From the IMG/VR virus record IMGVR_UViG_3300025597_000012: 64,000 bases of DNA. The stretch is one strand, 5' to 3'. The translations under genes and the position numbers were made by a program. Source of the DNA: a virus. The notes under the pieces were generated by a model. The model saw only the letters and a program-made list of their open reading frames with translations, made no database searches and was not told where the DNA came from. This document shows positions 1 to 19,925 of the stretch, one piece after another. The first letter of the stretch is position 1. Each line of letters begins with the position of its first letter.

Positions 1-1979
1 GCTACACCAGTATAAGCATCAGCTAATACAAGTGTATAGTTTGTTGTTTGTGTTGTAAAAATAAGTGAATTAAGTCCTGATGTACCTGCTGTTCCAGATG
101 TACCTGAAACACCAGATGTACCATTTGCACCATTTACTCCACTTGTACCTGAAACACCAGATGTACCTGAAACACCAGATGTACCATTTACACCATTAAT
201 TCCAGAGGTTCCATTTACTCCAGAAGTTCCATCTATACCATTCACACCAGAAGTTCCATTTGCGCCATTTACTCCAGATGTACCATTTACACCATTTACT
301 CCAGATGTTCCTGAAACACCACTAGTTCCAGATACACCACTTGTGCCACTAATACCCGATGTTCCATTAATACCATTAACTCCAGAAGTTCCATTTATAC
401 CATTAACTCCAGATGTACCATCAATTCCAGAAGTTCCATTTATACCATTAACTCCAGATGTACCATCAATTCCAGAAGTTCCATTAACACCATTAATCCC
501 AGATGTGCCGTTAACTCCAGAAGTACCACTCACACCAGAAGCACCAGATGTACCACTAGTTCCATTTATACCAGATGTGCCACTAGTTCCATCAGCAGCA
601 GAACCATTAAGTACAATTCTACCTGCAAATCTATCATCAGGTGAAGAAGGTACTTTTATTGTTACATTATTAGCATCAGTCTGTTCTACTATATCAACAT
701 TTACTTGAACAGGAGTTGAAGTAGTATCCCATAATTCTATTGTATAATTGAAAGTACCAAGTAAGTGATTAAAAGTTATAAAATAATAACCACTTATAGG
801 GCCACTCCAATCTGTAGTTGCATTAAAAATTTGATTAAAGCCAATAGCAGAAAGTCCAGAAGTACCAGAACTACCGAAAAAAGTACCATCAAGTCCTGAA
901 GTTCCTGATACACCAGAAGAACCAGATGTTCCAGAAATTCCAGAAGTTCCTGAAACACCACTAGTTCCAGAAATTCCAGAAGTTCCTGATACTCCAGATG
1001 TACCTGAAACACCAGATGTACCATTGAGACCATTAATACCCGAAGTACCAGATAAACCTGATGTACCATTAATTCCAGAAGTACCATTTATTCCAGAAGT
1101 TCCTGACACACCACTAGTTCCAGATATACCGCTAGTACCATTAATACCATTTACTCCACTTGTACCTGAAATACCAGATGTACCATTTACACCACTTGTA
1201 CCATTTATACCTGACGTTCCGTTTACACCTGACGTTCCATTTATACCTGAAGTACCAGATGTGCCATTTACTCCAGAAGTTCCATTTATACCATTTGCAC
1301 CATTTATTCCAGAAGTTCCATTTACTCCACTTGTACCATTAACACCACTAGTGCCATTAACTCCACTAGTTCCTGAAGTTCCGTTCACACCTGAAGTTCC
1401 GTTCACACCTGAAGTACCAGATGTTCCAGATATACCACTAGTTCCTGATAGTCCACTAGTACCTGATACTCCACTAGTTCCAGATATACCGCTAGTACCA
1501 TTAATACCATTAATACCCGAAGTACCATTTATTCCAGAAGAACCGGAAGTACCATTAATACCTGAAGTTCCTGATATACCAGAACTACCTGAACTACCAC
1601 TAGTTCCAGATATACCGCTGGTACCATTTAATCCAGAAGTTCCTGATATACCAGAACTACCAGATGCACCAGATGAACCTGTAATTCCAGAAGTACCAGA
1701 TGAACCAAAAAATATACCATCAACACCTGAAGTACCAGATGAACCAAAAAATGTACCATCTAAACCAGATGTACCTGATATACCAGAAGAACCAGATGTA
1801 CCAGCTATACCAATACCAGAAGTACCTGAAGTACCTGCACTACCTCTACTACCAGAAGTACCTGCAGTACCAGAAGTACCTGCTGCGTATTTCAGAAGAT
1901 TAACCTCTTTCCAAAGATTATCAATCTGTTTTTCGCAGTTAGTTAAATTAAACTTTATATTTAAATCACCAAGACCCAT
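1..1979 (-). CDS. Collagen-like (Gly-X-Y) repeat fibre protein, 3' end cut by the window edge
   Basis: Absent from the ORF track because it runs off the left edge. Hand translation from the ATG at 1979 gives MGLGDLNIKFNLTNCEKQIDNLWKEVNLLKYAAGTSGTAGTSGSRGSAGTSG... The ATG overlaps the upstream stop as TAATG. Long G-T-S / G-x-N triplet runs flank a non-repeat insert at about 600-850 (...FNATTDWSGPISGYYFITFNHLLGTFNYTIELWD...). I checked codon by codon that the frame is open at 3-104 and 540-866. Confidence 0.8.
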   Translation of the reverse strand, partial: MGLGDLNIKFNLTNCEKQIDNLWKEVNLLKYAAGTSGTAGTSGSRGSAGTSGTSGIGIAGTSGSSGISGTSGLDGTFFGSSGTSGVDGIFFGSSGTSGITGSSGASGSSGISGTSGLNGTSGISGTSGSSGSSGISGTSGINGTSGSSGINGTSGINGINGTSGISGTSGVSGTSGLSGTSGISGTSGTSGVNGTSGVNGTSGTSGVNGTSGVNGTSGVNGTSGINGANGINGTSGVNGTSGTSGINGTSGVNGTSGINGTSGVNGTSGISGTSGVNGINGTSGISGTSGVSGTSGINGTSGINGTSGLSGTSGINGLNGTSGVSGTSGVSGTSGISGTSGVSGTSGISGTSGSSGVSGTSGLDGTFFGSSGTSGLSAIGFNQIFNATTDWSGPISGYYFITFNHLLGTFNYTIELWDTTSTPVQVNVDIVEQTDANNVTIKVPSSPDDRFAGRIVLNGSAADGTSGTSGINGTSGTSGASGVSGTSGVNGTSGINGVNGTSGIDGTSGVNGINGTSGIDGTSGVNGINGTSGVNGINGTSGISGTSGVSGTSGVSGTSGVNGVNGTSGVNGANGTSGVNGIDGTSGVNGTSGINGVNGTSGVSGTSGVSGTSGVNGANGTSGVSGTSGTAGTSGLNSLIFTTQTTNYTLVLADAYTGV
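60..1890 (-). repeat. Triplet (GGT-ACT-TCT type) coding repeats of the collagen-like gene, interrupted at about 600-850
   Basis: The antisense reading gives PEVPDVP-type shadow ORFs (track ORFs 343..708+, 1024..2037+). The sense reading is G-X-Y. Confidence 0.8.
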
Positions 1980-4900
1980 TAATATTTATTTAATAGTCTA
2001 TAATATTGTAATTGTTCTTCCGGTTGCATCATGTTAACAGCTTGTCTTACAATCGGAATTGCTTTAAAGAGTTTGGCTTTTAATATAGAGTCTCCTTTAT
2101 CAAAGGCTCCTGTTTTTCTTTTATATACTTCTGTAGGATTAGTTACTAATTGAGTAAAGAAATCAGTATATCTTGTAGCTGTAAGAATTACGGCTGAAGG
2201 ATTTTGAAGCACCTGCATAATATCAGTAGCTCCAAAGATACTATACATACCTATATCTTTTCTAAGTCTAAGCATTTGAAGAGTAAGGGTATTTTGTAAC
2301 CAAGATTTATCCTTATCATCTCCTGAAGCATTAGCTAAAGCTATTGTTAAAATACCCATTCCTACAAGTAATGAGAGTTCAAACATAGTTTTATTATAGG
2401 CATACTTTTCATCAGCAGACCAACCTTTTCTATTAAAGAAGTTAGCTGCAGCGTTGAATTTCATTTCTTTAATATCAGAAGCAACCTTACTGAAGAATTT
2501 ACGATAGTATCCCTCCATTTCATCACCTATCTCATAATCAAAGCGTTGTCTTCCGTATCTTGACCTGAAAGCGTTGTACATGAACTTACGGTAAATTAAC
2601 ATAAGTTTACCATAAAAGGTTCTCTGCAGTTGAACTTTATCGAATTTACTATAGTTACCGTTAAGTATTTTATTTACACCATGTAGTCTTTGAGTGAAAA
2701 GTCTTTCATCTTCAGCAGTCCAGATAATATCATCTCTAAGTCTCAAGAAACCTTTTTCATTAATTTTATGAGCATCAAATAGAGATATAGTTTCTCCAGA
2801 CGTAGTTTTAACTTTGGTAGCGTTCATTAAAGAAAGCATACCTACAAGCTGAATCTGGTGTTCTGCTGCGTGGTTAATAATAAAGATAGTATCGGCATTT
2901 GCGTATCTTTGTGTAGCATTACCAACAAACTTTTTACCATATTTATCACGGAACTCACCTTGGATAGCATCGTATTTAATACCTAACTGAGTAATCTTTG
3001 ATTTCTTAAGATTAAAGGCATCCTTCATAAACTCATTAAAGTTACTGAAGTATTGTCCTTGAGCTTTTCTCCAGTCAGCAGGTGTATAATATTTAGCACC
3101 AAGAGATTCTCCAAGTGTCATAATATTACCGATACTTACGTTACCTATACCTGCTGTTACGTTGAAAGCCATGTTATTAAGAGCAGTAAGAAAGGCAAAG
3201 TTTCCACCAAGTTTATTTAAATCTACAGCTCTGCCAAAAATTCTAGCAGTATCTTGTAATTCTTCTTGACCATATACTACATCATCTAACCAGCTAAGTA
3301 GTTGTTTATTAAGACGTTCTGCTGTAGTTTTCTTAGAAGGAAGTTTAAGGAATCTATCAAAAATAGTTTTTCTATCAGATGTAACAGGAATTATTTTTCT
3401 TGCTTCCATCTTAAACTGAGCATTACCTTCAAGAACCATTCTTAAAGTTCTTACATTAGGTTCAACTTCTCTCATCATTTCAACAAGATTAGCTGCACCT
3501 GCAAACTTAAAGATTGTTTCGGGGAGAACTAAGCTTACATTAGAATCATCAATAGATTGTACATAAGGAGTTTTAATTCTCTTGTACATACTACCATCAA
3601 GATTTATGTCATTTTGTGCTGTAGTACTTTCTTCAGCTTTAGGTAAAAAGAAATTCAATACTTTATTACCTACTACTTTTGCTTTATTACCAGCACCTTC
3701 AGCAGTTTTAACATCTTGAATTTGACTGGGTTTGTCAAATACCTGAGGTACTATACCAAATTGAAGTCTTTCTTCTTCTCCATATTTATCATTACCTTCT
3801 TTATAGGTATCATACATTTTTGTAAAGAACTCGTCTTTATTGTAGAGTCTATCAAATTCTGCATTTTTATACTTATCAGCAGGTTTTGAAAGGCTACCAT
3901 TCTGTTCTTCCCAAGCAAAAATTTTATCTACATAATTTTGATATAAAGCTCTTTCTGCTGCTGTAGAATTTTCACTTGGCGCATCAGGCATTTCTCCTAA
4001 TGTTTCTAAGAAGGCAGCTTTATCTTTAGTATAAAGGTCATAGAAGTAAGGTTGGTGCAAAGCCCATTTCTGAGTGTAAGCCCATTTGAATTTACCTTCA
4101 TCATCTTTCTCTTCAGTTTTCTGAAGGATAGTAGCTTTTCTTAAGAAATTTTTCTTGTAGTATTCTACAGTACTTTTAGTTTCATTAGCTAAACCTTTTG
4201 CTTTCAAGAATTTAGCATAATCAATTTTAATTTCTTCACCAAGTTTTGCTTCATATAAATGGTTATCTTCCATTACATCAAATAAGGCTGTTCTTGTAAT
4301 AGCAGAAACAGGGTCATTATTTGAGCCAACAGAACCTAAATGGAACTGTAAGAAGCTTAAATCTTCATCAGCATTATACAGTTTATTTTTAAACTGCTCT
4401 TTTGTAAGTACATAACTAGGGTACTTATCTTTAATTCTTTCATTAACTTCCTCAATGTAAGGGAATAACCATTCAGCAGTAAGGTCTATTGAACGTGCCT
4501 TAATCTTATAGTCAGCTATATTTCTAGCTTCTGCAAGAGTTATTTGCATAGCTTTATATGCTTCAGGGGCAAGGTCTTGTGCTACTCTACCAAATAAACC
4601 ATGTACATCTTCGTACATAGCTAAAAGGTTTCTAACTAAGTCAAGGTCTCTATGAAGTTGTTTTACATCTTTCTGAGTAAGCTTATTTTCTTTATCAGAA
4701 AGCTTACCACTAATTCTCTTGAACTCATCACTAGCATAACGAAGACCATCTATACCTTGATAGATATATTGGTTAATACTTTCAAACTCATCATAGTTTT
4801 TAAGTAAAGACCTAACAGCTATAAGTTCAGAAAGAAGTTCAGGAGAAGGTGTTCTTCTTCTGGCTGTATCATCTAAAACAGCTAGTCTTCTTTTAATTCT

Positions 4901-7900
4901 TTCTATAAGTTTCTGGTCGTCAGTCTTTTCTGTAGCATCTGCTTGGAAAGCTTTAACGGCAGTAATTAAGTCTTTTCTTTCAGTAAAGTCAAAAGGCATA
5001 CCATTACTTGAAGTAAGGTCGGCAAACTCGGCAAGATTCATAGCCGGAAGATATTTTATTTTAGCAACTCCTTGTTCACCTGCTTTTGCACCTTTTACAT
5101 TAGCTTTTAAAGCTCCATAAAAACCACTAAGTACACTTACAAACCAATCAAAGAATTTTCTAGCTAAACTAGCTCCAGATTTATGATATTTATCATAAAG
5201 GAATCTACCAGTTCTGTCAAAATTTCTAGCTCCAAGTTTACCTAAATAGTTAACTAAAGCTTCGTCTTGGATTTCTTCTTTATTTTTACCTTTATATAAA
5301 GGACTCTTTAAAGTTTCAGACATAGCTTCACCAGCTATATCATCGTTCTCAAGTACAAGAGCTTTATACTCCTCCATTAAGCTTGTATATAGAGCATGGT
5401 TATCTACTTTAAGTACAGCCATAAATGGGTGAAGATATTCGTGAAATGGTGTATCTCTTGATACTCTACTTAAGTTAATAACAGCTACACTATTTTCAAA
5501 TTTACCTTTCCAATCTTCATCAACATCTACTACTTGATAAGGTATATTATATTTTTGTTTAAGATGCTCAAGTATAACTTTAAGACCAACATAATCAACT
5601 GTTAAGTTATCTTCATCTTCTGTAGATACAGTAAAAGGTTCATTTTGTTTACCATATTCAGTTTTATGATTTTCTGAATAATCTGTATCATAAGATTTAG
5701 GTATAACTATTTCTTTAAGAACACCTTCATCAAAAGGTTCTTCTGTTTCTTCTTGAATTTCAGGAGCAACTTTAGTAAGTTTATCTGAAGCAACAATTTG
5801 TTCACCATACTTTGTACCATCAGTAATAGTAACAAAAGTAGTTCCTTTTACAGTTCCGAAAGGTGTTTCTTTATCAAGACCTTCATTAACTTCAGTAACG
5901 GTAAGTTCTTTACCATTATACATAACTTTAGAACCTACATCTTCCTTAGTGAATACTTCAGGAATACGTTCTTCCTCAGGTTGAGGTTGTTCTTCAGTCT
6001 GTTGTTCAACTGGTTCAGTTTGTTGAGTTTCAGTTTCTTGTGCAGGAGTTATTTCTTTTTCTTGTGTATTTCCTGCATTTAATTTATCAATGATTGACTG
6101 AATAGCCTCATCTTTATTTAAACCTATTGCATCACCAGCTTCATCATACCAAGCACCATCAAATTCATCAATAGTATTGATAAGAGTACCATTATGTTTT
6201 ATCTCTACAAGACCATCTCCTGTAGTACGAATACTTAATTCTTTACGAGTTATAGCTTTAGTAGGTACTGGAGCAGGTTCTTCGGCTTGTGCTTCTTCAA
6301 CCTTTTTCTCTTCTTCCTGTTCAGTTTTTACCTCTTCTTTAATAACAGTCTCATATTTTTCACCAAGCATAGCAGCATAAATCTTTTTCATGCTGTCATT
6401 AAGGGTTACGTCAATATCAGAACCTACGATACCTTTATAAATATCAGTTAACCATTTCTTAAAATTATCAAAGAGTTTTTGTAATGTAGAAGTAGGAGCT
6501 TCACCATCAGCAAGGTATTTCTCAAAACCTCTAGCAAATTTCTCAGATGTTTCTCTACTCCAATCTTCAGTTCCAGCCCATTCTAATACGTCAGCTCTCT
6601 CAGTATCAGTAAGTTGTCCTTCCCAATAGTGAGCAAGTTCATGTAAAGGAGTTGATACATCAGGATTAGTTAATGAATAAATAATAGCCTGACTATCACC
6701 TAAAAGTCTTATAGCACCTTTTGGGCCTTGATTAAACTGTACATTAGTCCAATTAGCAATTTTAGAAGTATCGTTTCTTTTTAAATCATTATCTGAAAAT
6801 TCAGGACGACCTGAATAAGTAGGTTTAAGTAGTCGTGTAAATCTGTGTTCTGAATTTTTTAATTTTTTAATTTGTTCTTTTATTTCACTTAATTTTGCCT
6901 CTATATTATTTTTAAATTCAAGATATTCAGTTATAGAATCAAAATCGTCTTCAGTTACACTATCTAAATTATTTTTAACTAGGTTATATAGTTGTATTGC
7001 CCCTTTATATTTATCTTCTCTAGTACGAGTATTTGTACCACCTTCTATATTTAAATGATTTTTAAGTTGATTATATATAGAATTAGATAATCTATCTTCT
7101 ATTACTTTTTGTTCATCTGATGTAATATTAGATATTAATTTAGAAATATCTTGAACTTTTCTAAAAGTTTCAGTCTGGTCTACTTTTAATAATTTTTTAT
7201 ATAAACTTGCTTCAGCTAAAATATAATGTACATTATCATCTCTTACAAAAGGAGAATTTATAATTTTATCTTCATAAGAATTATTTTCAATATCTTTATC
7301 TGTAACATTAAATTCACGAAGTATGCTTCTTAATCGAGTTACAAAAGAACCTATTTTTATATTTGTTAAAGTAGCTTCTTTATCTAACCCTCCATGACCG
7401 TTATTAAATCTATTCCAAAGTCCTGAAAGTCCTACTTTTATAGAATCATATTGTTGTGTTATTCCATTAAGTGCTTCAATCTCAGCGTCTGTTAAGTTAA
7501 AGATTTGTTTAAATTGAGATAAAGTTTCTTTATCAATATAGTCTACAATACGACCAAAATTTGATATAAGTTGATTTTTATATTCCTCTTCTGTAACAAA
7601 TTCTGTTCCATCACGAAAAACTTTAAGACCTTTGGAAATATCAGTAATAAAGTTTGTAGGATTTTTTATTTTAGAGATATTTTCTAAAATATTAGCTACA
7701 GGTATTCTTAATTTAGACTCAACTGATTGATTTTGAAATAAAAGATTACCTTCATTTATGAAAGGATTAACAGTTCCGTGAGTTGCCTCATATACGAATT
7801 TAAGGGTATTACCATATCCATTATCAGCAAGCCACTTGTTAATTTTCTTAGCAAGTTCGGGGGTAGCTTTACCATTCTTAGTTTGGAAGGCAAGGTTACC

Positions 7901-10900
7901 AAAGCTTTTAGCTTTTTGAAGCTCAAAGCCTTTTACCACGTTTGCTATCATAGCAGAATTAGAATACTGATAATAAATATCAGGATTCTCTGTAGAGAAT
8001 GTGGCATTTCTACCAGAGGCATCTTTAACTTGGTCTGCTTCGTAAACAGCTAAGTTCTTGATTCCCTGTTCTTTAACATAGTAACCATCATAACCATTAT
8101 CTTTGATAAGCTTTTGGAAAGCTTTATCTTCTAAGACTTGCCAGTTATGTTCTTCAGAAAGGTAGAAATTACCATTCTCATCTTCACCACCTGTTAGTCT
8201 GCTATATATAGTTTTATTGTGTTCTTTTAGGAAAGCAAGGTCTTGTTTATTCTCATAGTCAAAAGGTTTATTTGCTTTTACAAATAAAGATAAAACATTG
8301 TTACCTCTTGTCACCATAGCATAGTCTTCAGAAAAATCATACTCTGGTGATAAGAACAGACCCATTCCTCTACCTTGTGTTTTGTCAAAGATACTCCAAT
8401 TTTCAGGAGTACCATGAAACATAACCATAGGCTCACCATTAACATCAAGAACTTTAGAGTTACCAAACCAGTTCTTAAATGCTTTAGTCTTAGTTAAAAG
8501 CCATGTATCTTCATCAAGTAATGAAGGTCTTCCGTTTGGAGCTTTTCTGAAAGTACCATTCTTTTTAGCAGCTTCTTTGATTTGAGCTTTTTCCTGCTCA
8601 ATAGATGGATTCTGCCAAATAGTATCTTCTGAACCTTGAAGACTTTCAGGAGTTGTTTTTCTGAAAGTTATGGATTTATAGAAGTCTTCTTTGGTCTTAC
8701 CATTTCTTAAAGCCCAAGTAGTAGCTACTCTATCATAGATTTCAGATACAGCTTTAGCCTGAGTTGATTTAAGGCTGAATAATGTCTCCATTACTTTAGC
8801 CATACTTTTCTTATCGGCAGCCACTTGGACTGTTTCAAAAGCTCTTTTTTCAGCTTCAGCAGCTTCAGGAATAAGTCTTACCAGTGCATCAGAAACCTTT
8901 TTACCAAAGATATTCTTACCTGCTTCTGGATTATCTATGTATTGAGATACGACTGCATTAAATACATCCTCATCATTAGAGCCGGCAATACCACTCTTAT
9001 AAGGTTCTTTAATGTCAGTTAAGTTCTCTCTAACTATACTTATAAACTCTTCTTTAGGAGTTTGAATTTTCTTTTCTTCAATTCTAGCTTGCTTAACTGC
9101 TTTAGCTGCAGCGGGTTCTTGCTTAGGTTGAGGTTTTACCTCTTGTTTAGCTTCAGTAGGAGCTGAAGGTTTAACAGCAGCTTTCTGACCTTTTTGTAGA
9201 GGGAATACTCTTAAAGAAAACTGTTTGAATACATCAGGTTGAGCTGCTATTGAAAGAGAGTTATTAAGTTGGTCTTGAGTAACTTCTGCGTCATTCAAGA
9301 TACCTGATTTAAAGTCTTGTTTAGCAAGTGAAAGATTAAGTTTGTCTATACTCTTAGTTTCGTAAGATACTTTTCTAATCTTTTCATCAATAGCTCTAAC
9401 CATTCCGTCAAAGTCTTTGGCTTGCTTTATCTCATTAACTTTAACTCTTTTATGTATAGGATTCTCAGGGTCAACTGTTTTATTGAATACATTAAGATAG
9501 ATATTGCCTTGAGTATCAACAGTTAATTTAAGGTCAGTTCTTCTTTCATCTCTATTTCTAGAGTCTGCAATATAAAGTTTTTCTGTAAGTTCAGAATTAA
9601 TTTTATCTACCTGTGCTTTTGTTAAAGTATTAGGAAGATTTTTAAGTTCATTATATACTTCATTAAGAATCTTTTCATCAGCCGCAGAAGGTCTTGCTAC
9701 AAGATGTCTGAAAGTACTGTCAGGCATTTTCATAACATAAAGATAGCGTCTATCAAAAGATTGAATATTCTTCAGATTATTAGCAACATAAGTTACAATA
9801 TCTGTAATTTCATCTTGAGAAAGTTCTGCTTTATTAAGAATAGTAGGTTTAGTACTTCTTTCGTATTGTTTATTTTCTTTGTTATAAACAACTGGGAATG
9901 AAAGTATTGCACTACCTTTTTGACCTTTGTATGTAAGATTTTTAAGTAATGTAGAAGAAGATTCTGATTTTGAATAATTTATACCGCCATAAGAAGTTAC
10001 AATATCAAATAAAGCCTTAAGCTCCTGATTAGTAAATTCAGTTTTACCTGATTTAAATTGAGAATAGAAATGCTCACTAAGTGCTTTATAATCAGTCATT
10101 TGCTGAATAAAGTCAGAATAAGTTGAAGGTTCATTACCTGTAATTCTTTCATATTCTTCAGGAGCAATCTCAATTAACGGAGTATATTTTTCACCTCTTT
10201 TAAAATAAAGTCTATCAGCGTCACTAAGAAAACCAATAGTCTCACCTTCAAATTTTAATTCAATTTGAGTATGTGAACCTGTGTAGTAAACACCCGGAAT
10301 ATTTTTAAAACCTTGATATGCACCATGAGGAAGCCCTTTAGTGCTTTCTGCTACAGTAGCAGTAAGACCATCATAAATTTGTTGAGGTGTTTTACTGAAT
10401 AAAACTTTTCTAAGATTGTCATTATTTTTTTGACCATCTTGATAGTTTACAGAGTTAATCTTGTTAAATAAAACTGAAGGGTTAGCAACCATTTGGATGC
10501 TATTAGTCTTCACACCTTTTCTTTTCTTATCAGCTTCTTTTACACCTTCTTGAATTTCTGCAACATCCTCAGAATCAAATGTTTCGTGAGTAGGAGTATT
10601 GTCTATAAAAGTAACTGGGCCAGCAGAAGTTTGAACTTCTTTAGAAGTATTTTCTTCTAATGTAGCCAGTTCTGCATCATATTTAGCATTAATTTTTTTT
10701 GAATAAGCGTTTAAACTGGATTCCTCCCCTGTTCTTTCTCCTGTTTTAGAGTATTTACCAAAAGAAGTTTGAGAATACGCAACTTTTAAGTAATCTTCTG
10801 TTGTTTGTTCTTTACTGATTTCAAAAGGAGAGTTATCATTAACATTACCATATTTATTTTTTTCAATACCTTGGTAAGCCATTCTTTTTCCATCAGGATA

Positions 10901-13858
10901 CGTTCTTATTTGAACATAAGTAATATCTCCATCATCATTAGTAAATGTAAATTCTTCTACTTTAGACGCATCTTTATCTTTATATTCATTTAATTCTTCC
11001 TGTCTTCTTTTTTCTATATCAGCTTTCTTAGCTTCTATATCAGTAGCTTTATTTTTATTTTCAGCTCTTTGAGCTTGTGCTTTCTTAGTTACTTCTGCTT
11101 TTACTTTAGAAGAAACTTTACCTTTTACTTCTTTACCGTTTTTATCAACGGCTGTAACTTCCCCATTAGGTTTAACTATATAAGTCTTACCTTCATTTTT
11201 TACAAGTACGTCTTTAGTTTCTTTCTTAGTTTCAGCAGGTTTAGCCTCAGTAGCTTTAGTAGCTGCTGCAGCTTTAGGAGCTGGTTCATCTACAACGTCT
11301 TCTACATCAGCACCATTAACATCACCGGGTTTAACTTCAGTATCTAAGAAAGGTGATTTATCAAAGTTATCTTCAGCTCTTTGATATTCAGCCATTACAT
11401 CAGCAAAGAATTTATTATATCCGTTCTTATTTGTAAGTTGCTGATAATGATAAATAGCACCATCTGTAGCACTTATAAGTTTAAATCCATCTTGTGCTTT
11501 GTTTAAAATATCATAAGCATCAATAGGATTAATTATTTTTTCATTACTAAAAGTTTTGTTATTAGCATAATAATTTAATAACTCTGTAGCAGTTTTTGTA
11601 TAGTTTCCTTTATAATCATCAGCTAAAGCATCTTTAAGTTCTTCAACTTTTTTATTTAAAAAGTCTCTTTCTTTTGTTTGCTTTTTATATAAATCGGAAT
11701 CCTTATCTTCAACATCTTTTGTTAATTCATCAATCTCTTTAACTCTTTTTTCAAATCTATTTATAGTATCTTGTACACCTTTATCATTAGTTAAATTAAT
11801 TACTTCATCAACATTAGCACCAGTGGATTGAGCTATCTCTGTAGATATTTTAGAAAGTCTTCTTTTATTATCATTAATTTCTGATAAGTTAAGACCTAAC
11901 TGTGTTTTATATTCATCAAATACAAAATAATTATTAGTTCCTTTTTTATAAGGATTAGGGAAAACTTTTTCTACTTTATCAATATTATCTTTAATATCGT
12001 GAGCTTTTTTGATAATATTATCAACAAAAGCATCTGTAGTTTTTTTGTTTTCTTCTGAGAAATTTATACCAAACATATTTTGGAACTCTTCAGGCTTAAG
12101 TTCTTTAAGCATATTAAGTTGTTCCATTCTTAAATCAAAGCGATTAGCTCTGACTCCACTTTCAACAAAGTTAAATAATTGTTGAAATTTAAGATTTTTA
12201 TGTTCAAAAATATCACCTTTAGCTAAAGCTTCATCCATAGAAGACTTAATAGATTGAGCTACTACAGCTTCATCATAAGTATTTCTAAATAAACCAGAAA
12301 GTCTTTGACTATTAAGTAAAGAAACGGCAGAATTAATTATTTGATTTTTTCCACCATCAATACCTTTTCTACGCTCAAGAGCACCTCTACCAACATGAAT
12401 AACAGCACCGCTAAGAATACCTAAGAATACATTCTCAAGACCTTCTCTTGTAGTTAGTACTTCTTTTAATCCTGTTGCTAAAGATTGGGTAAAATTATCA
12501 ACAGTATCAATATCCTTATTAGAGAATTTACGCTTATAATAATCTTCGGCAGTTCTTTGAATTACAAATTGAGAACCTTCTTCAAATCCTTCAGTAAGAC
12601 TTGTAGTTATAGGTCTAGCTATTTTACCTGCTGATTTAAATAAATCAAATTTTGTACTATTCTTTAATGTATTTTCAAATACATCCATAGATGCTTTAGA
12701 TAATGCAATATCCGCATCACTCATTACTTCAGATTGTACTGCTTTTCTAGCTGCATTTGTAGGACTAAATAGTGAACCAAAAATTTGTGAATTTGTAAAA
12801 GTAAGAAGAGCTACGTTAGCAAGCATACCAGCATTACCACCACCTCTTGCATATTCCTTAATCTGTTCTAAATCATAACCAGATGGGTCACGATGATATG
12901 TATTTCTATAATCTTCTGTTAAATTTTTTTCAATATTACGATATGTTTGATTTGCCTCAAATGTACCTTCAGCAATAGCAGAAGTACCTATAGCCAGACC
13001 ATATCTGAATTTATCAACAATATTTTTTGTTTTATTAGCTGCATTTATAGTAGCAAGAAGTTCATCGGCCTTATCTAAAGATTCAATAACAGCAGTTGAA
13101 ACTCTTTTTTCAGCAGTAAAGTATTTTCCTATTTTACCAAAAGCACTCATTATTTGAGAGCTTACTAATGGAACATCACCAACACCTCCAGTTAAAACTC
13201 CAACTACAGCATCTTCAGCAATAGCACCACCAATAGCACCTGCAGTGAAGCCAAGGTTATTTAATAAAGTACTCCAGTTATTAGCAGAACCATTAGTAAA
13301 AGGAATCCAACTAGCAATAGGATGTAACTGATTAGCAGTAGATTGATATGTAGGATGACTTATTTCTAAATTTTCCATCATATCTGCAATAGAATTTGCT
13401 AATTTTCCATTATATGTTTTATCTATATCTCCTGATGATAAAGCATCTAAAGTTTGGGGAACAGCAACAATAGCTTGTGCAAAAGAACCTGTAGTATTAC
13501 CTAAAAATTTTAAAATATTATTTCCCCATGTAGTCCAAGCACTTTGTCTATCACCATATTGAGCTTCTTGATTTGTATTATATGGGTCAAATCCATAAAT
13601 AGGTGACTGATATCTTAGAGTTTGTTCAAGAGGTGTTCTAACAGGCTGATTTATTTCTAAAGAAGATGACCAAGGTGCAGATTCAGTTCTTACTTTATCA
13701 AAGATACTTGATAAGATTTCTTTAGGAGAAGGAGTAACCTGAGCACCCGGAACATTAGGCATAGGCTGAGTATGTAACTCAGGACTAACTAAGTTATTCA
13801 TTCCTGTATTCAGGAAATCCAAGTTTCTGTTATATGTACCATTTGGAACGTCAGGCAT
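1979..13858 (-). CDS. Giant 3959-aa virion-associated polyvalent protein (two zincin HExxH motifs plus an ART-like domain)
   Basis: Single uninterrupted ORF. HELAH lies at nt 6629-6643 and HEYLH at nt 5429-5443. An ART-like segment at nt ~8040-8480 reads GEPMVMFHGT...LFLSPEYDFSEDYA...LAVYEADQVK. The N-terminus is Gly/Ala-rich and hydrophobic, and there is a hydrophobic segment near the C-terminus. K/E/Q/P low-complexity linkers are present. The gene sits in the tail/virion module. Confidence 0.6.
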   Translation of the reverse strand: MPDVPNGTYNRNLDFLNTGMNNLVSPELHTQPMPNVPGAQVTPSPKEILSSIFDKVRTESAPWSSSLEINQPVRTPLEQTLRYQSPIYGFDPYNTNQEAQYGDRQSAWTTWGNNILKFLGNTTGSFAQAIVAVPQTLDALSSGDIDKTYNGKLANSIADMMENLEISHPTYQSTANQLHPIASWIPFTNGSANNWSTLLNNLGFTAGAIGGAIAEDAVVGVLTGGVGDVPLVSSQIMSAFGKIGKYFTAEKRVSTAVIESLDKADELLATINAANKTKNIVDKFRYGLAIGTSAIAEGTFEANQTYRNIEKNLTEDYRNTYHRDPSGYDLEQIKEYARGGGNAGMLANVALLTFTNSQIFGSLFSPTNAARKAVQSEVMSDADIALSKASMDVFENTLKNSTKFDLFKSAGKIARPITTSLTEGFEEGSQFVIQRTAEDYYKRKFSNKDIDTVDNFTQSLATGLKEVLTTREGLENVFLGILSGAVIHVGRGALERRKGIDGGKNQIINSAVSLLNSQRLSGLFRNTYDEAVVAQSIKSSMDEALAKGDIFEHKNLKFQQLFNFVESGVRANRFDLRMEQLNMLKELKPEEFQNMFGINFSEENKKTTDAFVDNIIKKAHDIKDNIDKVEKVFPNPYKKGTNNYFVFDEYKTQLGLNLSEINDNKRRLSKISTEIAQSTGANVDEVINLTNDKGVQDTINRFEKRVKEIDELTKDVEDKDSDLYKKQTKERDFLNKKVEELKDALADDYKGNYTKTATELLNYYANNKTFSNEKIINPIDAYDILNKAQDGFKLISATDGAIYHYQQLTNKNGYNKFFADVMAEYQRAEDNFDKSPFLDTEVKPGDVNGADVEDVVDEPAPKAAAATKATEAKPAETKKETKDVLVKNEGKTYIVKPNGEVTAVDKNGKEVKGKVSSKVKAEVTKKAQAQRAENKNKATDIEAKKADIEKRRQEELNEYKDKDASKVEEFTFTNDDGDITYVQIRTYPDGKRMAYQGIEKNKYGNVNDNSPFEISKEQTTEDYLKVAYSQTSFGKYSKTGERTGEESSLNAYSKKINAKYDAELATLEENTSKEVQTSAGPVTFIDNTPTHETFDSEDVAEIQEGVKEADKKRKGVKTNSIQMVANPSVLFNKINSVNYQDGQKNNDNLRKVLFSKTPQQIYDGLTATVAESTKGLPHGAYQGFKNIPGVYYTGSHTQIELKFEGETIGFLSDADRLYFKRGEKYTPLIEIAPEEYERITGNEPSTYSDFIQQMTDYKALSEHFYSQFKSGKTEFTNQELKALFDIVTSYGGINYSKSESSSTLLKNLTYKGQKGSAILSFPVVYNKENKQYERSTKPTILNKAELSQDEITDIVTYVANNLKNIQSFDRRYLYVMKMPDSTFRHLVARPSAADEKILNEVYNELKNLPNTLTKAQVDKINSELTEKLYIADSRNRDERRTDLKLTVDTQGNIYLNVFNKTVDPENPIHKRVKVNEIKQAKDFDGMVRAIDEKIRKVSYETKSIDKLNLSLAKQDFKSGILNDAEVTQDQLNNSLSIAAQPDVFKQFSLRVFPLQKGQKAAVKPSAPTEAKQEVKPQPKQEPAAAKAVKQARIEEKKIQTPKEEFISIVRENLTDIKEPYKSGIAGSNDEDVFNAVVSQYIDNPEAGKNIFGKKVSDALVRLIPEAAEAEKRAFETVQVAADKKSMAKVMETLFSLKSTQAKAVSEIYDRVATTWALRNGKTKEDFYKSITFRKTTPESLQGSEDTIWQNPSIEQEKAQIKEAAKKNGTFRKAPNGRPSLLDEDTWLLTKTKAFKNWFGNSKVLDVNGEPMVMFHGTPENWSIFDKTQGRGMGLFLSPEYDFSEDYAMVTRGNNVLSLFVKANKPFDYENKQDLAFLKEHNKTIYSRLTGGEDENGNFYLSEEHNWQVLEDKAFQKLIKDNGYDGYYVKEQGIKNLAVYEADQVKDASGRNATFSTENPDIYYQYSNSAMIANVVKGFELQKAKSFGNLAFQTKNGKATPELAKKINKWLADNGYGNTLKFVYEATHGTVNPFINEGNLLFQNQSVESKLRIPVANILENISKIKNPTNFITDISKGLKVFRDGTEFVTEEEYKNQLISNFGRIVDYIDKETLSQFKQIFNLTDAEIEALNGITQQYDSIKVGLSGLWNRFNNGHGGLDKEATLTNIKIGSFVTRLRSILREFNVTDKDIENNSYEDKIINSPFVRDDNVHYILAEASLYKKLLKVDQTETFRKVQDISKLISNITSDEQKVIEDRLSNSIYNQLKNHLNIEGGTNTRTREDKYKGAIQLYNLVKNNLDSVTEDDFDSITEYLEFKNNIEAKLSEIKEQIKKLKNSEHRFTRLLKPTYSGRPEFSDNDLKRNDTSKIANWTNVQFNQGPKGAIRLLGDSQAIIYSLTNPDVSTPLHELAHYWEGQLTDTERADVLEWAGTEDWSRETSEKFARGFEKYLADGEAPTSTLQKLFDNFKKWLTDIYKGIVGSDIDVTLNDSMKKIYAAMLGEKYETVIKEEVKTEQEEEKKVEEAQAEEPAPVPTKAITRKELSIRTTGDGLVEIKHNGTLINTIDEFDGAWYDEAGDAIGLNKDEAIQSIIDKLNAGNTQEKEITPAQETETQQTEPVEQQTEEQPQPEEERIPEVFTKEDVGSKVMYNGKELTVTEVNEGLDKETPFGTVKGTTFVTITDGTKYGEQIVASDKLTKVAPEIQEETEEPFDEGVLKEIVIPKSYDTDYSENHKTEYGKQNEPFTVSTEDEDNLTVDYVGLKVILEHLKQKYNIPYQVVDVDEDWKGKFENSVAVINLSRVSRDTPFHEYLHPFMAVLKVDNHALYTSLMEEYKALVLENDDIAGEAMSETLKSPLYKGKNKEEIQDEALVNYLGKLGARNFDRTGRFLYDKYHKSGASLARKFFDWFVSVLSGFYGALKANVKGAKAGEQGVAKIKYLPAMNLAEFADLTSSNGMPFDFTERKDLITAVKAFQADATEKTDDQKLIERIKRRLAVLDDTARRRTPSPELLSELIAVRSLLKNYDEFESINQYIYQGIDGLRYASDEFKRISGKLSDKENKLTQKDVKQLHRDLDLVRNLLAMYEDVHGLFGRVAQDLAPEAYKAMQITLAEARNIADYKIKARSIDLTAEWLFPYIEEVNERIKDKYPSYVLTKEQFKNKLYNADEDLSFLQFHLGSVGSNNDPVSAITRTALFDVMEDNHLYEAKLGEEIKIDYAKFLKAKGLANETKSTVEYYKKNFLRKATILQKTEEKDDEGKFKWAYTQKWALHQPYFYDLYTKDKAAFLETLGEMPDAPSENSTAAERALYQNYVDKIFAWEEQNGSLSKPADKYKNAEFDRLYNKDEFFTKMYDTYKEGNDKYGEEERLQFGIVPQVFDKPSQIQDVKTAEGAGNKAKVVGNKVLNFFLPKAEESTTAQNDINLDGSMYKRIKTPYVQSIDDSNVSLVLPETIFKFAGAANLVEMMREVEPNVRTLRMVLEGNAQFKMEARKIIPVTSDRKTIFDRFLKLPSKKTTAERLNKQLLSWLDDVVYGQEELQDTARIFGRAVDLNKLGGNFAFLTALNNMAFNVTAGIGNVSIGNIMTLGESLGAKYYTPADWRKAQGQYFSNFNEFMKDAFNLKKSKITQLGIKYDAIQGEFRDKYGKKFVGNATQRYANADTIFIINHAAEHQIQLVGMLSLMNATKVKTTSGETISLFDAHKINEKGFLRLRDDIIWTAEDERLFTQRLHGVNKILNGNYSKFDKVQLQRTFYGKLMLIYRKFMYNAFRSRYGRQRFDYEIGDEMEGYYRKFFSKVASDIKEMKFNAAANFFNRKGWSADEKYAYNKTMFELSLLVGMGILTIALANASGDDKDKSWLQNTLTLQMLRLRKDIGMYSIFGATDIMQVLQNPSAVILTATRYTDFFTQLVTNPTEVYKRKTGAFDKGDSILKAKLFKAIPIVRQAVNMMQPEEQLQYYRLLNKY

Positions 13859-16488
13859 TATTTATAATTTCTTAATTCTTCTATAAATTGTTCGTGTGTA
13901 AGTCCTTGTTGCGATGCAAGTTTAACTACTTGTTTTGCTTTATTATAAGCATCAGAAGGACTTAAACCATTGGTTGCTGGTATTGTAATTCTATCTACTC
14001 TATTTGTTTTATTACCATTTTCATCTAAATAATAAACTACAGCTTGTGCATAAGAGTTATTATCATTTAAATCTGATGAATTTCTATCTACTATATTTAC
14101 AAAGATAGACATATCTTTATTTCCATAAATAGGTAAATCAGAACTTCTACCGTTTATTTTTACACTATAGTTAAGTGAGTTTTCATAAGGGTCTCTTACA
14201 ATTCCCATTTTAGCAGCTTGACTATCACTAATAAAAGTTTTATATTTAGTTTTTACTGTTTTATCACCATTACCTACTTCAATATCAGATATAACAAAGT
14301 AACGTCCAGTACCATCAGATGCTTTTCCTATCATTGTAGGAGTAATCTTTTTTTCTACTGTTAAATCACTATTGCTAAGTTTAGGAGAATCTCTATAAGG
14401 TTCTGATTTTCCATTTATTAATTCTGTACTTATTAAATTAGATAATTGTCCATCACTAACAAAAGGGTCTTTATTTGAAATAGTTCTTAAACCATAAACA
14501 TCTCTTGTTTTTGTAGTTTTAAGACCTTCATTAATATTTTGTATGACTGTAGTTAAATAATCTCCAAATTCAGAATTTGCATAACCGGGAGTTACAAAAC
14601 CAAGAGCAGCAAGTCCATTTTGAATTATTGAAGCTGCTTCATTTGTGCTTTTTGAACTAAGTTCTGGATGTTTATTAATAAACTCAGTTATTTTTTCTCT
14701 AGCTGCTTCTGGAATGTTAAAATCATCATAAACTTTATTACGAACAGCTTCTACTTTTTTATTGTTAGCTTTGATAACTTCATTGTTCATTAATATCTTC
14801 TCAACATCAGCATCAAAACCATCTATTAAATCGGGAGTTACTGAACCTTTTCCTAAAGCTAAAGCTTCATAGTTCTTATATTGATTAGCAATAAATTGTA
14901 ATTGAGAACTATTTAAATTTGCTAAATGACCATATTGCTGAACTACAGCGTCATGTTTATAAACAGGTTTTCCATCAGGGCCTGTTGTCGTTTCAAACAT
15001 AGCTAAGTCATCTGCTTGTAATCCGGGTTGACCATTAAAATCTTCTATAAACTTCTGATTCTTAAGAAGTCTGGCTGTTCCTTTACCTATAGTTGTTACT
15101 TCTGTAACACCAACTTCAGGGTGTTCACCAACTAGCTTGTTTATAATAGATGCGGATATTTGGTCATTTTCTAGCTTTAATGCTGTATTTTCATCTGTAA
15201 TTTTAGCTAATGTTGGAATAGATGCTTCTTCTGTATTAGGGTCATCTGTTACTAAGTGGTTATCTCCTGTTGGTAAATCAAGTAATTCAATTTCTCCTGT
15301 TATAGGATTAACATGTCTATACTTACCTGCAGCAGCTAACTTAACTTGAAGCTCTCCCTCTTTAATATCAAGCTCTCTATTTTTTAATTCTACTGTTTTA
15401 GCAAAATGTCTATCAGCTTGTTCCATCTTATCAGTGAACATCTTAGCTTGGTCAAATTGTATAGTTCTGTCTGTTCTATTAACTGAGAATCTATTACCTA
15501 ATCCTCTAAAATAATCATCTGCATATAGATTGTAATAGACTTCATCAGGGTTAGATTGAAGTGCTTTACCAAAATTCTGTGAGAATTGTGACTTAGCCGA
15601 GGCAATAGAAGATACTACTTTAGCTTGTTCATCTGCTAATTTATTGTAATTTTTTCTAGCTTGGGGGTCATTAACTGCTTGAGCAGCAAGGTCTTCGTAT
15701 TCTCTTTGAAGTCTTACAGCATCATCAACTTTAGTTTGATATTGTGCTTCTCCTTTTTGCATAAGAGCCTTAGGGTCAGCTCCTCTGTATAAAAACCAAG
15801 CATCTCTTTTCATTTGTTCTCTTTCCTGAGGAAGCATATTATCAGCAGCAATAGCCATTATTCTGTCTGGACTAATTCTTTCACCTGTTTCCTTAGTTAT
15901 GTAATATCCATTTTGCATGATATTAGTAGTAAGGTCAGATTTAATTTTATCAAATAACTTATAGTGAGCATCACGATAAGCTACATAAGGAGTAGCCTCA
16001 GATGGGCCATTATAACTACTTCCAATAGTTTTATCATTCATGTAAGCATTAACACTTTGCATGTCATATGCTTCATTTACTTGGCTATAAAGTTTTGAAA
16101 GTTTAGGGTCTGTTTTAAATTTTTCATAAGAACTCATTAAATTTCTAACTTTCTTTGTTGAAGCAAGTGCAGAAAGAACTTTATTATCAGAATAAATATC
16201 AGAACCTAAACCTTCTACTTGTGCTGTTACACTTTGGTCAGATAAGTCAATTCCACCATATGTATTTAAAGAACTAACAAGATTATTAATCTTACCGTTA
16301 AGATAGTCTCTATCTTCTGTCTTTAATACATCTAAGCTACCAAGTTGGTCTATATCAGATTGTATCTTTTGGCCTGCCTTATCAAACTGTTCTTGCTTGA
16401 TACTCAACACTTTAGAGAAAAGGTTGAGGTCAAGTGGTAGCTCGTAAGGGCTAGACTTAAAAGGTGTACTTAAATAACTTATCGCCAT
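13858..16488 (-). CDS. 876-aa virion structural protein (function unassigned)
   Basis: Long ORF. Its stop overlaps the giant gene's start. A promoter-like site lies upstream. No diagnostic motif recognised. Confidence 0.5.
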   Translation of the reverse strand: MAISYLSTPFKSSPYELPLDLNLFSKVLSIKQEQFDKAGQKIQSDIDQLGSLDVLKTEDRDYLNGKINNLVSSLNTYGGIDLSDQSVTAQVEGLGSDIYSDNKVLSALASTKKVRNLMSSYEKFKTDPKLSKLYSQVNEAYDMQSVNAYMNDKTIGSSYNGPSEATPYVAYRDAHYKLFDKIKSDLTTNIMQNGYYITKETGERISPDRIMAIAADNMLPQEREQMKRDAWFLYRGADPKALMQKGEAQYQTKVDDAVRLQREYEDLAAQAVNDPQARKNYNKLADEQAKVVSSIASAKSQFSQNFGKALQSNPDEVYYNLYADDYFRGLGNRFSVNRTDRTIQFDQAKMFTDKMEQADRHFAKTVELKNRELDIKEGELQVKLAAAGKYRHVNPITGEIELLDLPTGDNHLVTDDPNTEEASIPTLAKITDENTALKLENDQISASIINKLVGEHPEVGVTEVTTIGKGTARLLKNQKFIEDFNGQPGLQADDLAMFETTTGPDGKPVYKHDAVVQQYGHLANLNSSQLQFIANQYKNYEALALGKGSVTPDLIDGFDADVEKILMNNEVIKANNKKVEAVRNKVYDDFNIPEAAREKITEFINKHPELSSKSTNEAASIIQNGLAALGFVTPGYANSEFGDYLTTVIQNINEGLKTTKTRDVYGLRTISNKDPFVSDGQLSNLISTELINGKSEPYRDSPKLSNSDLTVEKKITPTMIGKASDGTGRYFVISDIEVGNGDKTVKTKYKTFISDSQAAKMGIVRDPYENSLNYSVKINGRSSDLPIYGNKDMSIFVNIVDRNSSDLNDNNSYAQAVVYYLDENGNKTNRVDRITIPATNGLSPSDAYNKAKQVVKLASQQGLTHEQFIEELRNYK

Positions 16489-16537: not shown

Positions 16538-16563
16538 TCTCTAATGGATTGCTGTTAAAATTA

Positions 16564-18651: not shown

Positions 18652-19925
18652 TACGGATTCTTTTTAAATCGTGGAGAATAGAAGTTTTGTTTTTGTGTGT
18701 ATTGTATATCACCTGAACTAGGGTCAATATAATAAGGCAAATTTAATTTTTCATCCCAAAATAACTCATTTACTTGTTGAGGAACATAAGGAGAAACTAA
18801 AGACTTAGGAATAGGACTATAATCAGGAGATAATTTATTTCCATTTATATCTACATAATCAGGTACTCTATTACCAACGGTAGCATTTTCTCCCATTATT
18901 AAATTTCTTTCTACTGCAAATTTTTTAGCCTGCTTATTAGCTTCTGCTATTTGTTCTTTTGTATATCCACCAACTTGCATCTTATGTTCCTTTACAACTC
19001 CATACATAGCTACAGTATGATTAGGGCCATGTAATACAGCGGTCTTTCCTCTTTGGTCTGTTACCTTTATAGGTCTTCCAGAATCTAATCCGCGTATAAG
19101 ATTATACTGCGGTGGTAAATCAAGCGTCATACTTTGTAAAGAACTACCGTTCAATCCATTAGCTAGTTCTGTAGGTGTGCTTGCTACTCCACCCATTTGT
19201 CTTTTAGCGGGTTCTATATGCCAGTGAGGGCCAACTCCTTTTACATTTCTTTCATCAATTATTTCATAACCTTGACTTTGCATATATGCTCTTCCTTCAG
19301 GAGAAGCAAAAAAAGCATCTGTCTTAGGCTCTGTTCTAATATCGGCAGCTCTACCAGTTAAGTGAAACGAGTTCTTTGCAGAACCAGTTATCTTACTATT
19401 TTCTTGAGGTGTTCTAAGTCCACTTGTTACTGTAAAATTTCCTATTTTTGATTTAATCCCTGATAATACTCCAGTTAATTGATTAGATAATCCTTGTGAG
19501 CTAACTCCTTGTTTAAAAGATATTCCTTCTGCGCTTGGTGTTCTAGACACATTTGTATTAGGAGTTGAAGCAGGAGTTCCACTAACTTCCTCATCACTAA
19601 AAGTTATAGGCATATTATCATCATCCTGAAAAATAAAATTTAGGAAGGGGTCATTAAAATCCTTACCTATAGTTTGATTTCTTTGTAAACTTTCAAGTTG
19701 GCTAGCAAGGTCATTATATTTACCTAAAAGCTCCTGATAATTATCATCTCCAATATCTGAAGACGTTGTTTCGGCAGCCTCTTCGGTATTATTATCTTCA
19801 CTCTCTTGTTCGTCCTGTTGTGGTTGCTGTTGATTAGCTTGTAAATAACTAGCTACCTGATTAAAAAAATCAGTACTATATAAATCATTTTGACCACCAA
19901 CTTGATATTTAGATTTCTTTCTCAT
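18651..19925 (-). CDS. Virion-associated peptidoglycan peptidase, M15A-like
   Basis: The segment SGLRTPQENSKITGSAKNSFHLTGRAADI...GPHWHIE fits the M15 zinc-ligand pattern HxxxxxxD...H. Located among virion genes. Confidence 0.55.
   Translation of the reverse strand: MRKKSKYQVGGQNDLYSTDFFNQVASYLQANQQQPQQDEQESEDNNTEEAAETTSSDIGDDNYQELLGKYNDLASQLESLQRNQTIGKDFNDPFLNFIFQDDDNMPITFSDEEVSGTPASTPNTNVSRTPSAEGISFKQGVSSQGLSNQLTGVLSGIKSKIGNFTVTSGLRTPQENSKITGSAKNSFHLTGRAADIRTEPKTDAFFASPEGRAYMQSQGYEIIDERNVKGVGPHWHIEPAKRQMGGVASTPTELANGLNGSSLQSMTLDLPPQYNLIRGLDSGRPIKVTDQRGKTAVLHGPNHTVAMYGVVKEHKMQVGGYTKEQIAEANKQAKKFAVERNLIMGENATVGNRVPDYVDINGNKLSPDYSPIPKSLVSPYVPQQVNELFWDEKLNLPYYIDPSSGDIQYTQKQNFYSPRFKKNP

Follow-up and report, generated by a model that had tools for sequence, protein, structure and literature searches.

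What use does a phage make of a protein encoded by 11.9 kb of its genome? The question is raised by the window analysed here, the whole 64,000-nucleotide stretch of IMG/VR virus record IMGVR_UViG_3300025597_000012 from a crAss-like phage, in which a single open reading frame (ORF) of 3959 residues with an ATG start occupies 1979..13858 on the minus strand. A first-pass annotation had read this giant gene as one 11.9-kb ORF for a virion-packaged, ejected, multi-effector protein that might double as a tape measure. The extent of the ORF was confirmed, and the strings quoted from it, namely both HExxH motifs and the segment resembling an ADP-ribosyltransferase (ART), were all located in the translation; the two HExxH motifs compare with 0.033 expected from the giant's own H and E content. 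Our analysis indicates that the giant is probably a virion-packaged, ejected polyvalent cargo protein, as its position in the cargo block downstream of the muzzle gene, its homology to gp47, gp49 and gp65 of other crAss-like phages and the polyvalent domains of its relatives would fit. It belongs to the crAss family of 'RNAP-associated' giant polyproteins (RNAP, RNA polymerase), a membership overlooked by the first-pass annotation, and can best be regarded as a variant of this known cargo polyprotein that carries effectors but no polymerase. Among cultured phages the nearest relative is Leptolyngbya phage Lbo-JY46, where two neighbouring genes, e (1552 aa) and f (2748 aa), together correspond to the giant. 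The parts of the giant gene are as follows.

1979..13858, minus strand: giant gene, 3959 aa, cysteine-free (ORF list and translation).
11108..13744, minus strand (aa 39-917): N module 1 (N1); phmmer match to Lbo-JY46 gene e, E 2e-93.
13181..13249, minus strand (aa 204-226): Gly-rich hydrophobic segment FTAGAIGGAIAEDAVVGVLTGGV; similar segments in relatives' sequences.
10454..11107, minus strand (aa 918-1135): K/E/A/T-rich low-complexity linker, from composition; unmatched in relatives.
9191..10453, minus strand (aa 1136-1556): N module 2 (N2); phmmer match to Lbo-JY46 gene e, E 2e-38.
9002..9190, minus strand (aa 1557-1619): K/E/P-rich linker at the Lbo-JY46 e/f gene boundary.
8459..9001, minus strand (aa 1620-1800): conserved flank before the effector slot ('pre'), in many relatives.
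7997..8446, minus strand (aa 1805-1954): ART-PolyVal ADP-ribosyltransferase domain in the variable effector slot; Pfam PF18760.
8408-8440, minus strand (aa 1807-1817): NGEPMVMFHGT, located as a string in the translation.
8318-8362, minus strand (aa 1833-1847): GLFLSPEYDFSEDYA, located as a string in the translation.
8024-8056, minus strand (aa 1935-1945): NLAVYEADQVK, located as a string in the translation.
7679..7996, minus strand (aa 1955-2060): conserved flank after the effector slot ('post'), from the module table of relatives.
6740..7678, minus strand (aa 2061-2373): unassigned lineage-specific region.
6329..6739, minus strand (aa 2374-2510): zincin-like domain 1; H2406 E2407 H2410 E2413, S2438 E2439.
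6620-6643, minus strand (aa 2406-2413): HELAHYWE, located as a string in the translation.
5639..6328, minus strand (aa 2511-2740): E/K/Q/P/T-rich linker; composition 0.52-0.61.
5054..5638, minus strand (aa 2741-2935): zincin-like domain 2, gp65 type; H2806 E2807 H2810, E2866.
5423-5446, minus strand (aa 2805-2812): FHEYLHPF, located as a string in the translation.
1982..5053, minus strand (aa 2936-3959): C module, mostly alpha-helical; phmmer match to Lbo-JY46 gene f, E 6e-159.
2321..2392, minus strand (aa 3823-3846): transmembrane (TM)-like hydrophobic helix followed by an acidic patch; mean Kyte-Doolittle 1.89.

Both ends of the protein matched crAss proteins known from virions. The giant shares its N module with crAss001 gp47 (giant aa 330-677 against gp47 aa 359-723; E 1e-10 by phmmer, also matched by tblastn) and its C module with crAss001 gp49 (aa 3447-3909 against aa 822-1295; phmmer E 7e-29) and phi14:2 gp65 (aa 3310-3942 against aa 725-1406; phmmer E 1e-12). 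Mass spectrometry identified gp47 and gp49 as virion proteins (PMC10172136), as it did gp65 according to the annotation of the phi14:2 record. An exhaustive HMMER search returned 1848 cluster representatives matching giant aa 2740-3939, in proteins of 1000-5400 aa, and the C module stood at the C-terminus of every family member; the C-module match test against database phages yielded 68 phage records. N1 was found in at least 12 fused relatives and N2 was limited to Lbo-JY46 gene e and close relatives. The hydrophobic ends described earlier correspond to the Gly-rich segment and the TM-like helix listed above, and the family consensus also has a C-terminal hydrophobic helix and a D-rich patch. 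The long K/E/Q/P linkers were likewise recognized by composition, K/E/Q/P/T/A making up 0.52-0.61 of the residues at aa ~801-1000, 1501-1600, 2501-2700 and 3201-3300. The AlphaFold2 (AF2) model of aa 2740-3939 was helical and of low confidence (pLDDT 59). The unassigned region had no match in Pfam, NCBIfam or PDB and was matched only by P0008, the identical-length cluster representative. With the whole giant as query the PHROGs scan returned only the uninformative phrog_9880, and pattern scans of IMG/VR yielded two partial relatives and no more.

Pfam and NCBIfam scans of the giant in 520-aa windows detected the ART domain and nothing else. The ART-like domain proposed earlier is now firmly placed, PF18760 being matched over its full profile (positions 1-140 of 140) with 69 and 74.1 bits against a gathering cut-off of 31.2 (E 9e-19 and 2.5e-20). 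ART-PolyVal is the commonest protein-modifying domain among the polyvalent proteins of Iyer et al., with an H-Y-D active site formed by His in strand 1, Tyr in strand 2 and Asp in strand 5 (PMC5512222). Candidate active-site residues in the giant are H1815 in MFHGT, the tyrosines in SPEYDFSEDYA, and E1940 and D1942 in VYEADQ, which aligns with Y[DEN]PxQ of other crAss ARTs. The domain occupies an exchangeable slot: between the same flanks, the giant carries ART and Lbo-JY46 a GNAT acetyltransferase (Pfam E 4e-8), with the pre flank aligned at giant aa 1680-1742 and gene f aa 46-108 (phmmer E 3e-10) and the post flank at giant aa 1959-2035 and gene f aa 230-301 (phmmer). At least eight representatives have the pre and post flanks around differing inserts. 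ART-PolyVal was present in 6 and LPD23 in 3 of 17 relatives, both being domains of the polyvalent-protein repertoire, and ART was also detected in the crAss isolate ctcc615, in a 2532-aa 'putative RNAP associated protein fused to zincin protease' (Pfam E 3e-14). The exchange of ART and GNAT, together with ART and LPD23 in relatives, amounts to the domain shuffling that defines polyvalent proteins.

P0009, P0017, P0019 and P0025 have in common a slot segment of ~250 aa in which kinase-like strings occur, namely GSDRDVYDLG, (V/L)KIAKTARG (KIAKHPRG in P0025), and DFSN.(D/N)NWG in P0009 and P0017, DFRHPNNWG in P0019 or DIVKEDSWG in P0025. This cassette had no Pfam match at E 0.001 and we do not claim a kinase identity for it.

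Both HExxH motifs and a downstream Glu were invariant among relatives. In domain 2, H2806, E2807, H2810 and E2866 did not vary across 23 diverse sequences, and 78 of 78 relatives had the HExxH. The two domains were mutually homologous (hhalign 94.7%), the HExxH sits on a helix, as a zincin or gluzincin site would, and domain 2 was collinear with the HEIMH of phi14:2 gp65 and the HEAFH near the C-terminal end of crAss001 gp47; the distance to the aligned C part is 504 aa from HEYLH (aa 2806) in the giant and 480 aa from HEIMH (aa 245) in gp65. Drobysheva et al., citing Yutin et al. 2018, assign a Zincin-like protease domain to gp65 and its orthologs (10.1101/2020.03.07.982082). In the relative P0007, a PhageMetallopep-type HExxH half (Pfam, 28.7 bits against a cut-off of 23.7, E 1.5e-6) is joined to the same C-terminal half; this was the only match above the cut-off, those to SprT, M48, M13 and DUF4932 in the HExxH regions of relatives all being sub-threshold, and Foldseek on low-confidence models of the HExxH regions found no zincin-fold match. 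The earlier zincin assignment finds indirect support in the invariant HExxH and Glu residues, the homology of the two domains, the P0007 match and the literature label, and falters on peptidase profiles, none of which was matched in the giant, and on fold searches, which were weak or empty. Both domains are probably gluzincin-type metal sites under strong selection; we name them 'zincin-like', protease activity being a prediction.

The genes preceding the giant are those of a Crassvirales virion module, all on the minus strand in the order terminase, portal, capsid, ring proteins, muzzle, 424-, 695- and 876-aa genes and giant.

44036-46072, minus strand: large terminase.
41250-43958, minus strand: portal.
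38236-39900, minus strand: major capsid protein.
26290-26955, minus strand: Ring protein 2.
24888-25775, minus strand: Ring protein 1.
19928-24883, minus strand: muzzle protein, 1652 aa; Pfam crAss_MUZ E 8e-27, PHROG 37948 E 3e-182.
18651-19925, minus strand: 424-aa cargo gene with Peptidase_M15_3 (E 3e-8) and an endolysin PHROG match.
16564-18651, minus strand: 695-aa cargo gene.
13858-16488, minus strand: 876-aa cargo gene.

The muzzle gene marks the tail as crAss type. The giant takes the same genome position as the crAss cargo proteins (phi14:2 gp65 and gp67, crAss001 gp47 and gp49, and the fused N-RNAP-zincin-C proteins), after the muzzle and small cargo genes; in crAss001 the muzzle gp44 is followed by cargo gp45 and gp46 and then gp47 (database record). 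The 876-, 695- and 424-aa genes are homologous to Lbo-JY46 genes d, c/b and a, the neighbouring genes there being syntenic, gene by gene, with the cargo block of the window, and the 424-aa product is likely a cell-wall-cutting ejection protein. Bayfield et al. detected crAss001 gp45, gp46, gp47, gp49 and gp50 in virions by mass spectrometry, placed gp46, gp47, gp49 and gp50 in a capsid cargo zone and argued that the cargo proteins exit partly unfolded, before the DNA (PMC10172136). Both borders of the giant gene are TAATG stop/start overlaps, which places it within an operon; promoter and terminator scans showed no enrichment.

The giant has no Cys in 3959 residues, whereas the 18 other ORFs of the window have 105 in 9767 (1.07%), a frequency at which zero would occur by chance with P = 2.6e-19. 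The cargo neighbours of 876, 695 and 424 aa have 0, 1 and 0 Cys, respectively, against ~1% in muzzle, ring, fibre and other neighbours, a difference that may indicate ejection of all products of the block. Most listed relatives, of 2000-5400 aa each, have 0-1 Cys, the polymerase-bearing fusions P0044, P0084 and P0085 have 2, 5 and 2 in 4734, 4378 and 5004 residues, phi14:2 gp65-67 have 1-2 each, and the N4 virion RNA polymerase (vRNAP) has none in 3500 residues. Cysteine depletion would be selected for in proteins that have to unfold on their way across the envelope and could otherwise be trapped by disulfides, and in our interpretation provides independent support for ejection. A separate pattern was seen in the f-type relatives P0012-P0026 (2000-2760 aa), in which the effector and zincin part forms a separate gene: these have a single Cys at residue 3-5 (MxxC; MSNCVFSY, MACTVVF, MQFCAL), an N-terminal Cys that the fused giants lack.

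Three of the four features that define a polyvalent protein were found in the giant. At least two unrelated biochemical domains (ART and two HExxH domains) reside in one polypeptide, the gene lies among phage virion/late genes (in the structural module, after the muzzle), and orthologs shuffle domains from a repertoire of ART, GNAT, kinases, LPDs and metallopeptidases. The fourth, delivery with the DNA, is suggested by the presence of homologs in virions and by cysteine depletion. The polyvalent proteins of Iyer et al., e.g. N4-like vRNAPs with metallopeptidase and ART domains as in Roseovarius Plymouth podovirus 1, similarly combine several unrelated enzymes in one giant late product, share the H-Y-D ART-PolyVal family and HExxH metallopeptidase-like domains (LPD23 and GNAT occurring in relatives of the giant), and are also predicted to be delivered with the DNA (PMC5512222). 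The giant differs from them in its scaffold, made of crAss N and C modules instead of MuF, portal or N4 RNAP, and in metallopeptidase-like domains that score below the Pfam models for polyvalent-protein peptidases.

According to Drobysheva et al. (10.1101/2020.03.07.982082), some phages encode the polymerase gp66 together with gp65 and gp67 as a single polyprotein. Among the 25 relatives of at least 3000 aa, 11 have a crAss polymerase flanked by the same N and C modules, and the polymerase motif DFDxD was not found in 14, the giant included. A polymerase hidden within the giant was also considered and rejected, the candidate features not being conserved. In the 64-kb window neither a gp66 match nor, in any frame, a DFDxD motif was found, L010 likewise had no gp66 or gp50 match and no polymerase motif, and the complete 125-kb genome of Lbo-JY46 had no gp66/gp50 match, no DFDxD motif and no unassigned ORF above 900 aa. 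The polymerase is therefore absent from the giant protein and from Lbo-JY46; for the window phage we infer its absence, because ~40 kb of the phage's own genome (NODE_75 of ERZ724020, ~20.6-60.1 kb) is unread. That unread part is one of the grounds for regarding the giant mainly as an accessory subunit of a virion RNA polymerase encoded elsewhere, with N and C modules that would serve the polymerase, in line with a proposal for gp47, gp49 and gp65, and an ART that would be a passenger; another is the annotation of homologs as 'putative RNA-polymerase subunit' or 'RNAP associated protein'. We consider this improbable in view of the negative window, of the 10 kb downstream and 20 kb early region on the phage's own contig, neither of which holds a giant gene, of the complete genome of the syntenic Lbo-JY46, which offers no candidate, and of the 14 fused family members in which the motif is missing.

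The possible tape-measure role raised in the first-pass annotation was not borne out. Great length, helical content and hydrophobic segments would suit a tape measure or another component of tail length or tail tube, but the tail genes encode ring and muzzle proteins as in crAss phages, the giant gene lies in the cargo block, its crAss001 homologs are capsid-stored cargo (PMC10172136), and a family that varies from 1000 to 5400 aa through swapped enzymatic inserts is a misfit for a length ruler, making such a role very unlikely. It is just as hard to credit that the ORF joins two or more genes through sequencing or assembly error. The same sequence does form two genes of 1552 and 2748 aa in Lbo-JY46; however, four independent cluster members at 90% identity or more (JGI, ENA and NCBI data) are each exactly 3959 aa long, the exact protein is carried by two contigs, one of them 118,377 bp long, the fused layout with its N module recurs in at least 12 relatives at 26-50% identity, and the e/f junction appears in the giant as an in-frame K/E/P linker. 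More weight attaches to the view, still the less favoured one at perhaps one chance against several, that the HExxH domains do not process the giant itself and either act on the host envelope or host proteins or are silent metal-binding or structural modules. Drobysheva et al. suggested that the gp65 domain might activate the polymerase or digest host peptidoglycan (10.1101/2020.03.07.982082), Iyer et al. allow that such metallopeptidase domains could instead act as effectors (PMC5512222), the HExxH-bearing C-terminal domain of N4 is a polymerase autoinhibitor with protease activity unreported (PMC13434306), and peptidase profiles have no match in the giant. On the other hand, the 424-aa cargo protein already supplies a dedicated cell-wall peptidase domain (M15), H, E, H and Glu are kept without exception in 78 of 78 relatives, which suggests that selection maintains a metal site, and long inter-domain linkers would suit cleavage, although these three points cannot tell self-processing from action on other targets.

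Returning to the reading of the giant as an ejected polyvalent cargo protein, several points weigh against it. A polymerase may be encoded in the ~40 kb that are unread; packaging and ejection are extrapolated from homologs at 22-25% sequence identity; no Pfam or NCBIfam peptidase model (E up to 10) and no PDB sequence matched either HExxH region, and the proteolytic processing of the giant is presumed; and the catalytic H-Y-D/E residues of the ART are candidates placed by motif and alignment.

Compared with the crAss cargo proteins, near-absence of cysteine is common to both, homologs are proven in virions by mass spectrometry, and the HExxH domain of the giant is collinear with those of gp65 and of the C-terminal end of gp47. 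The giant differs in having no DFDxD polymerase inside or adjacent, in its additional N2 module and in the ART slot, and it unites in one polypeptide N and C parts that crAss001 encodes on opposite strands. A second comparison is offered by N4 gp50, in which a ~900-aa N domain and the polymerase are followed by two subdomains, one with HExxH and one helical and ~1100 aa long (PMC13434306). The order of parts is the same in the giant (N ~900 aa, middle enzyme, HExxH, helical C ~1000 aa), both are cysteine-free, and gp50 is ejected with the DNA (PMC13434306). The likeness is one of layout only: the family hidden Markov model scored -32 bits against gp50, with shuffled controls reaching 3.4, and in a comparison aimed at the fold of the N4 C-terminal domain (gp50 2124-3500) the AF2 model of the giant, a poor one, had no Foldseek hit in a library that extends to 2026-04-08 and may lack 9PNR. 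For the ART, Iyer et al. use T4 Alt as functional model (PMC5512222), an ART that is packed in the head, injected and active as soon as infection starts, which is also our model for the predicted role in the giant; Alt differs in being a single-domain protein of the R-S-E clade, whereas the ART of the giant is an H-Y-D ART-PolyVal embedded in 3959 aa.

These comparisons suggest how the giant could work. Its scaffold consists of the conserved N module and the helical C module with one TM-like helix; in other crAss-like phages the same scaffold flanks the virion RNA polymerase, in a single fusion or as separate genes of the gp67/gp66/gp65 type. The middle of the giant holds the ART slot, the unassigned region and two zincin-like domains, separated by long low-complexity linkers. 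The protein would be made late, packed in the capsid cargo zone and passed in unfolded form, before the DNA, through portal, tail barrel and muzzle; having no cysteine at all would suit it to crossing an oxidising periplasm. The N and/or C modules may contribute to building or anchoring a trans-envelope conduit, and the zincin-like domains may cleave either the linkers of the polyprotein or proteins of the host. The released ART could then use NAD+ to modify host targets at the very onset of infection, like T4 Alt acting on host RNA polymerase.

A broader proposal, which we put forward tentatively and hold to be possible though short of probable, is that a crAss-like clade comprising the window phage, Lbo-JY46 and metagenomic relatives has lost the virion RNA polymerase, has kept the scaffold and injects swappable host-modifying enzymes, taking over the host RNA polymerase by covalent modification. 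If so, the clade would use ART here, GNAT in Lbo-JY46 and others elsewhere in place of a polymerase of its own, and the crassvirus 'RNAP-associated' proteins would be a general protein-delivery module and not polymerase subunits. The role of the three giant proteins of this kind is not established, and their relation to the parts of the ejected N4 polymerase gp50 was left as an open question in the 2026 N4 structural paper (PMC13434306). The retention of N and C modules and HExxH domains without a polymerase, with cassettes swapped at a fixed slot, argues that the modules serve packaging, ejection and anchoring and not transcription. Lbo-JY46, a cultured phage with the same architecture, provides a testable system. 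The family would constitute a natural chassis that moves large enzymatic cargo through a phage tail into the cell, and near-absent cysteine is a possible marker of ejected proteins, judging from the giant family and the N4 vRNAP only.

Other features of the window concern the surroundings of the giant gene. Immediately downstream, a gene with collagen-like Gly-X-Y repeats occupies window 1-1979 on the minus strand, its ATG (1979..1977) overlapping the stop codon of the giant (TAATG); it runs past the window start, measures 781 aa on the phage's own contig and probably encodes a fibre protein, and the plus-strand 'ORFs' there (e.g. 1024..2037, with PxVPE repeats) are its antisense shadow. Two more collagen-repeat proteins, at 29847-30782 and 31272-32369, have tail-fibre PHROG matches and are Cys-rich (9 and 18). 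Several arrays on the minus strand between 48485 and 56868 comprise 21 tRNA genes, and the order His-Gln-Phe-Thr-Pro is identical in Leptolyngbya phage Lbo-JY46. Between 58000 and 64000 the G+C content rises from ~0.33 to 0.44, the sign of the GC skew flips and the ORFs turn to the plus strand; this is the start of a small early-gene block on contig NODE_75, relative to which the window is circularly permuted. In Lbo-JY46, 16548-20757 holds the NAD+/phosphoribosyl pyrophosphate (PRPP) salvage genes PncB and PrsA together with genes for a GATase and a gamma-glutamyl cyclotransferase (GGACT), and GATase and GGACT genes also occur in the early region of the window phage.

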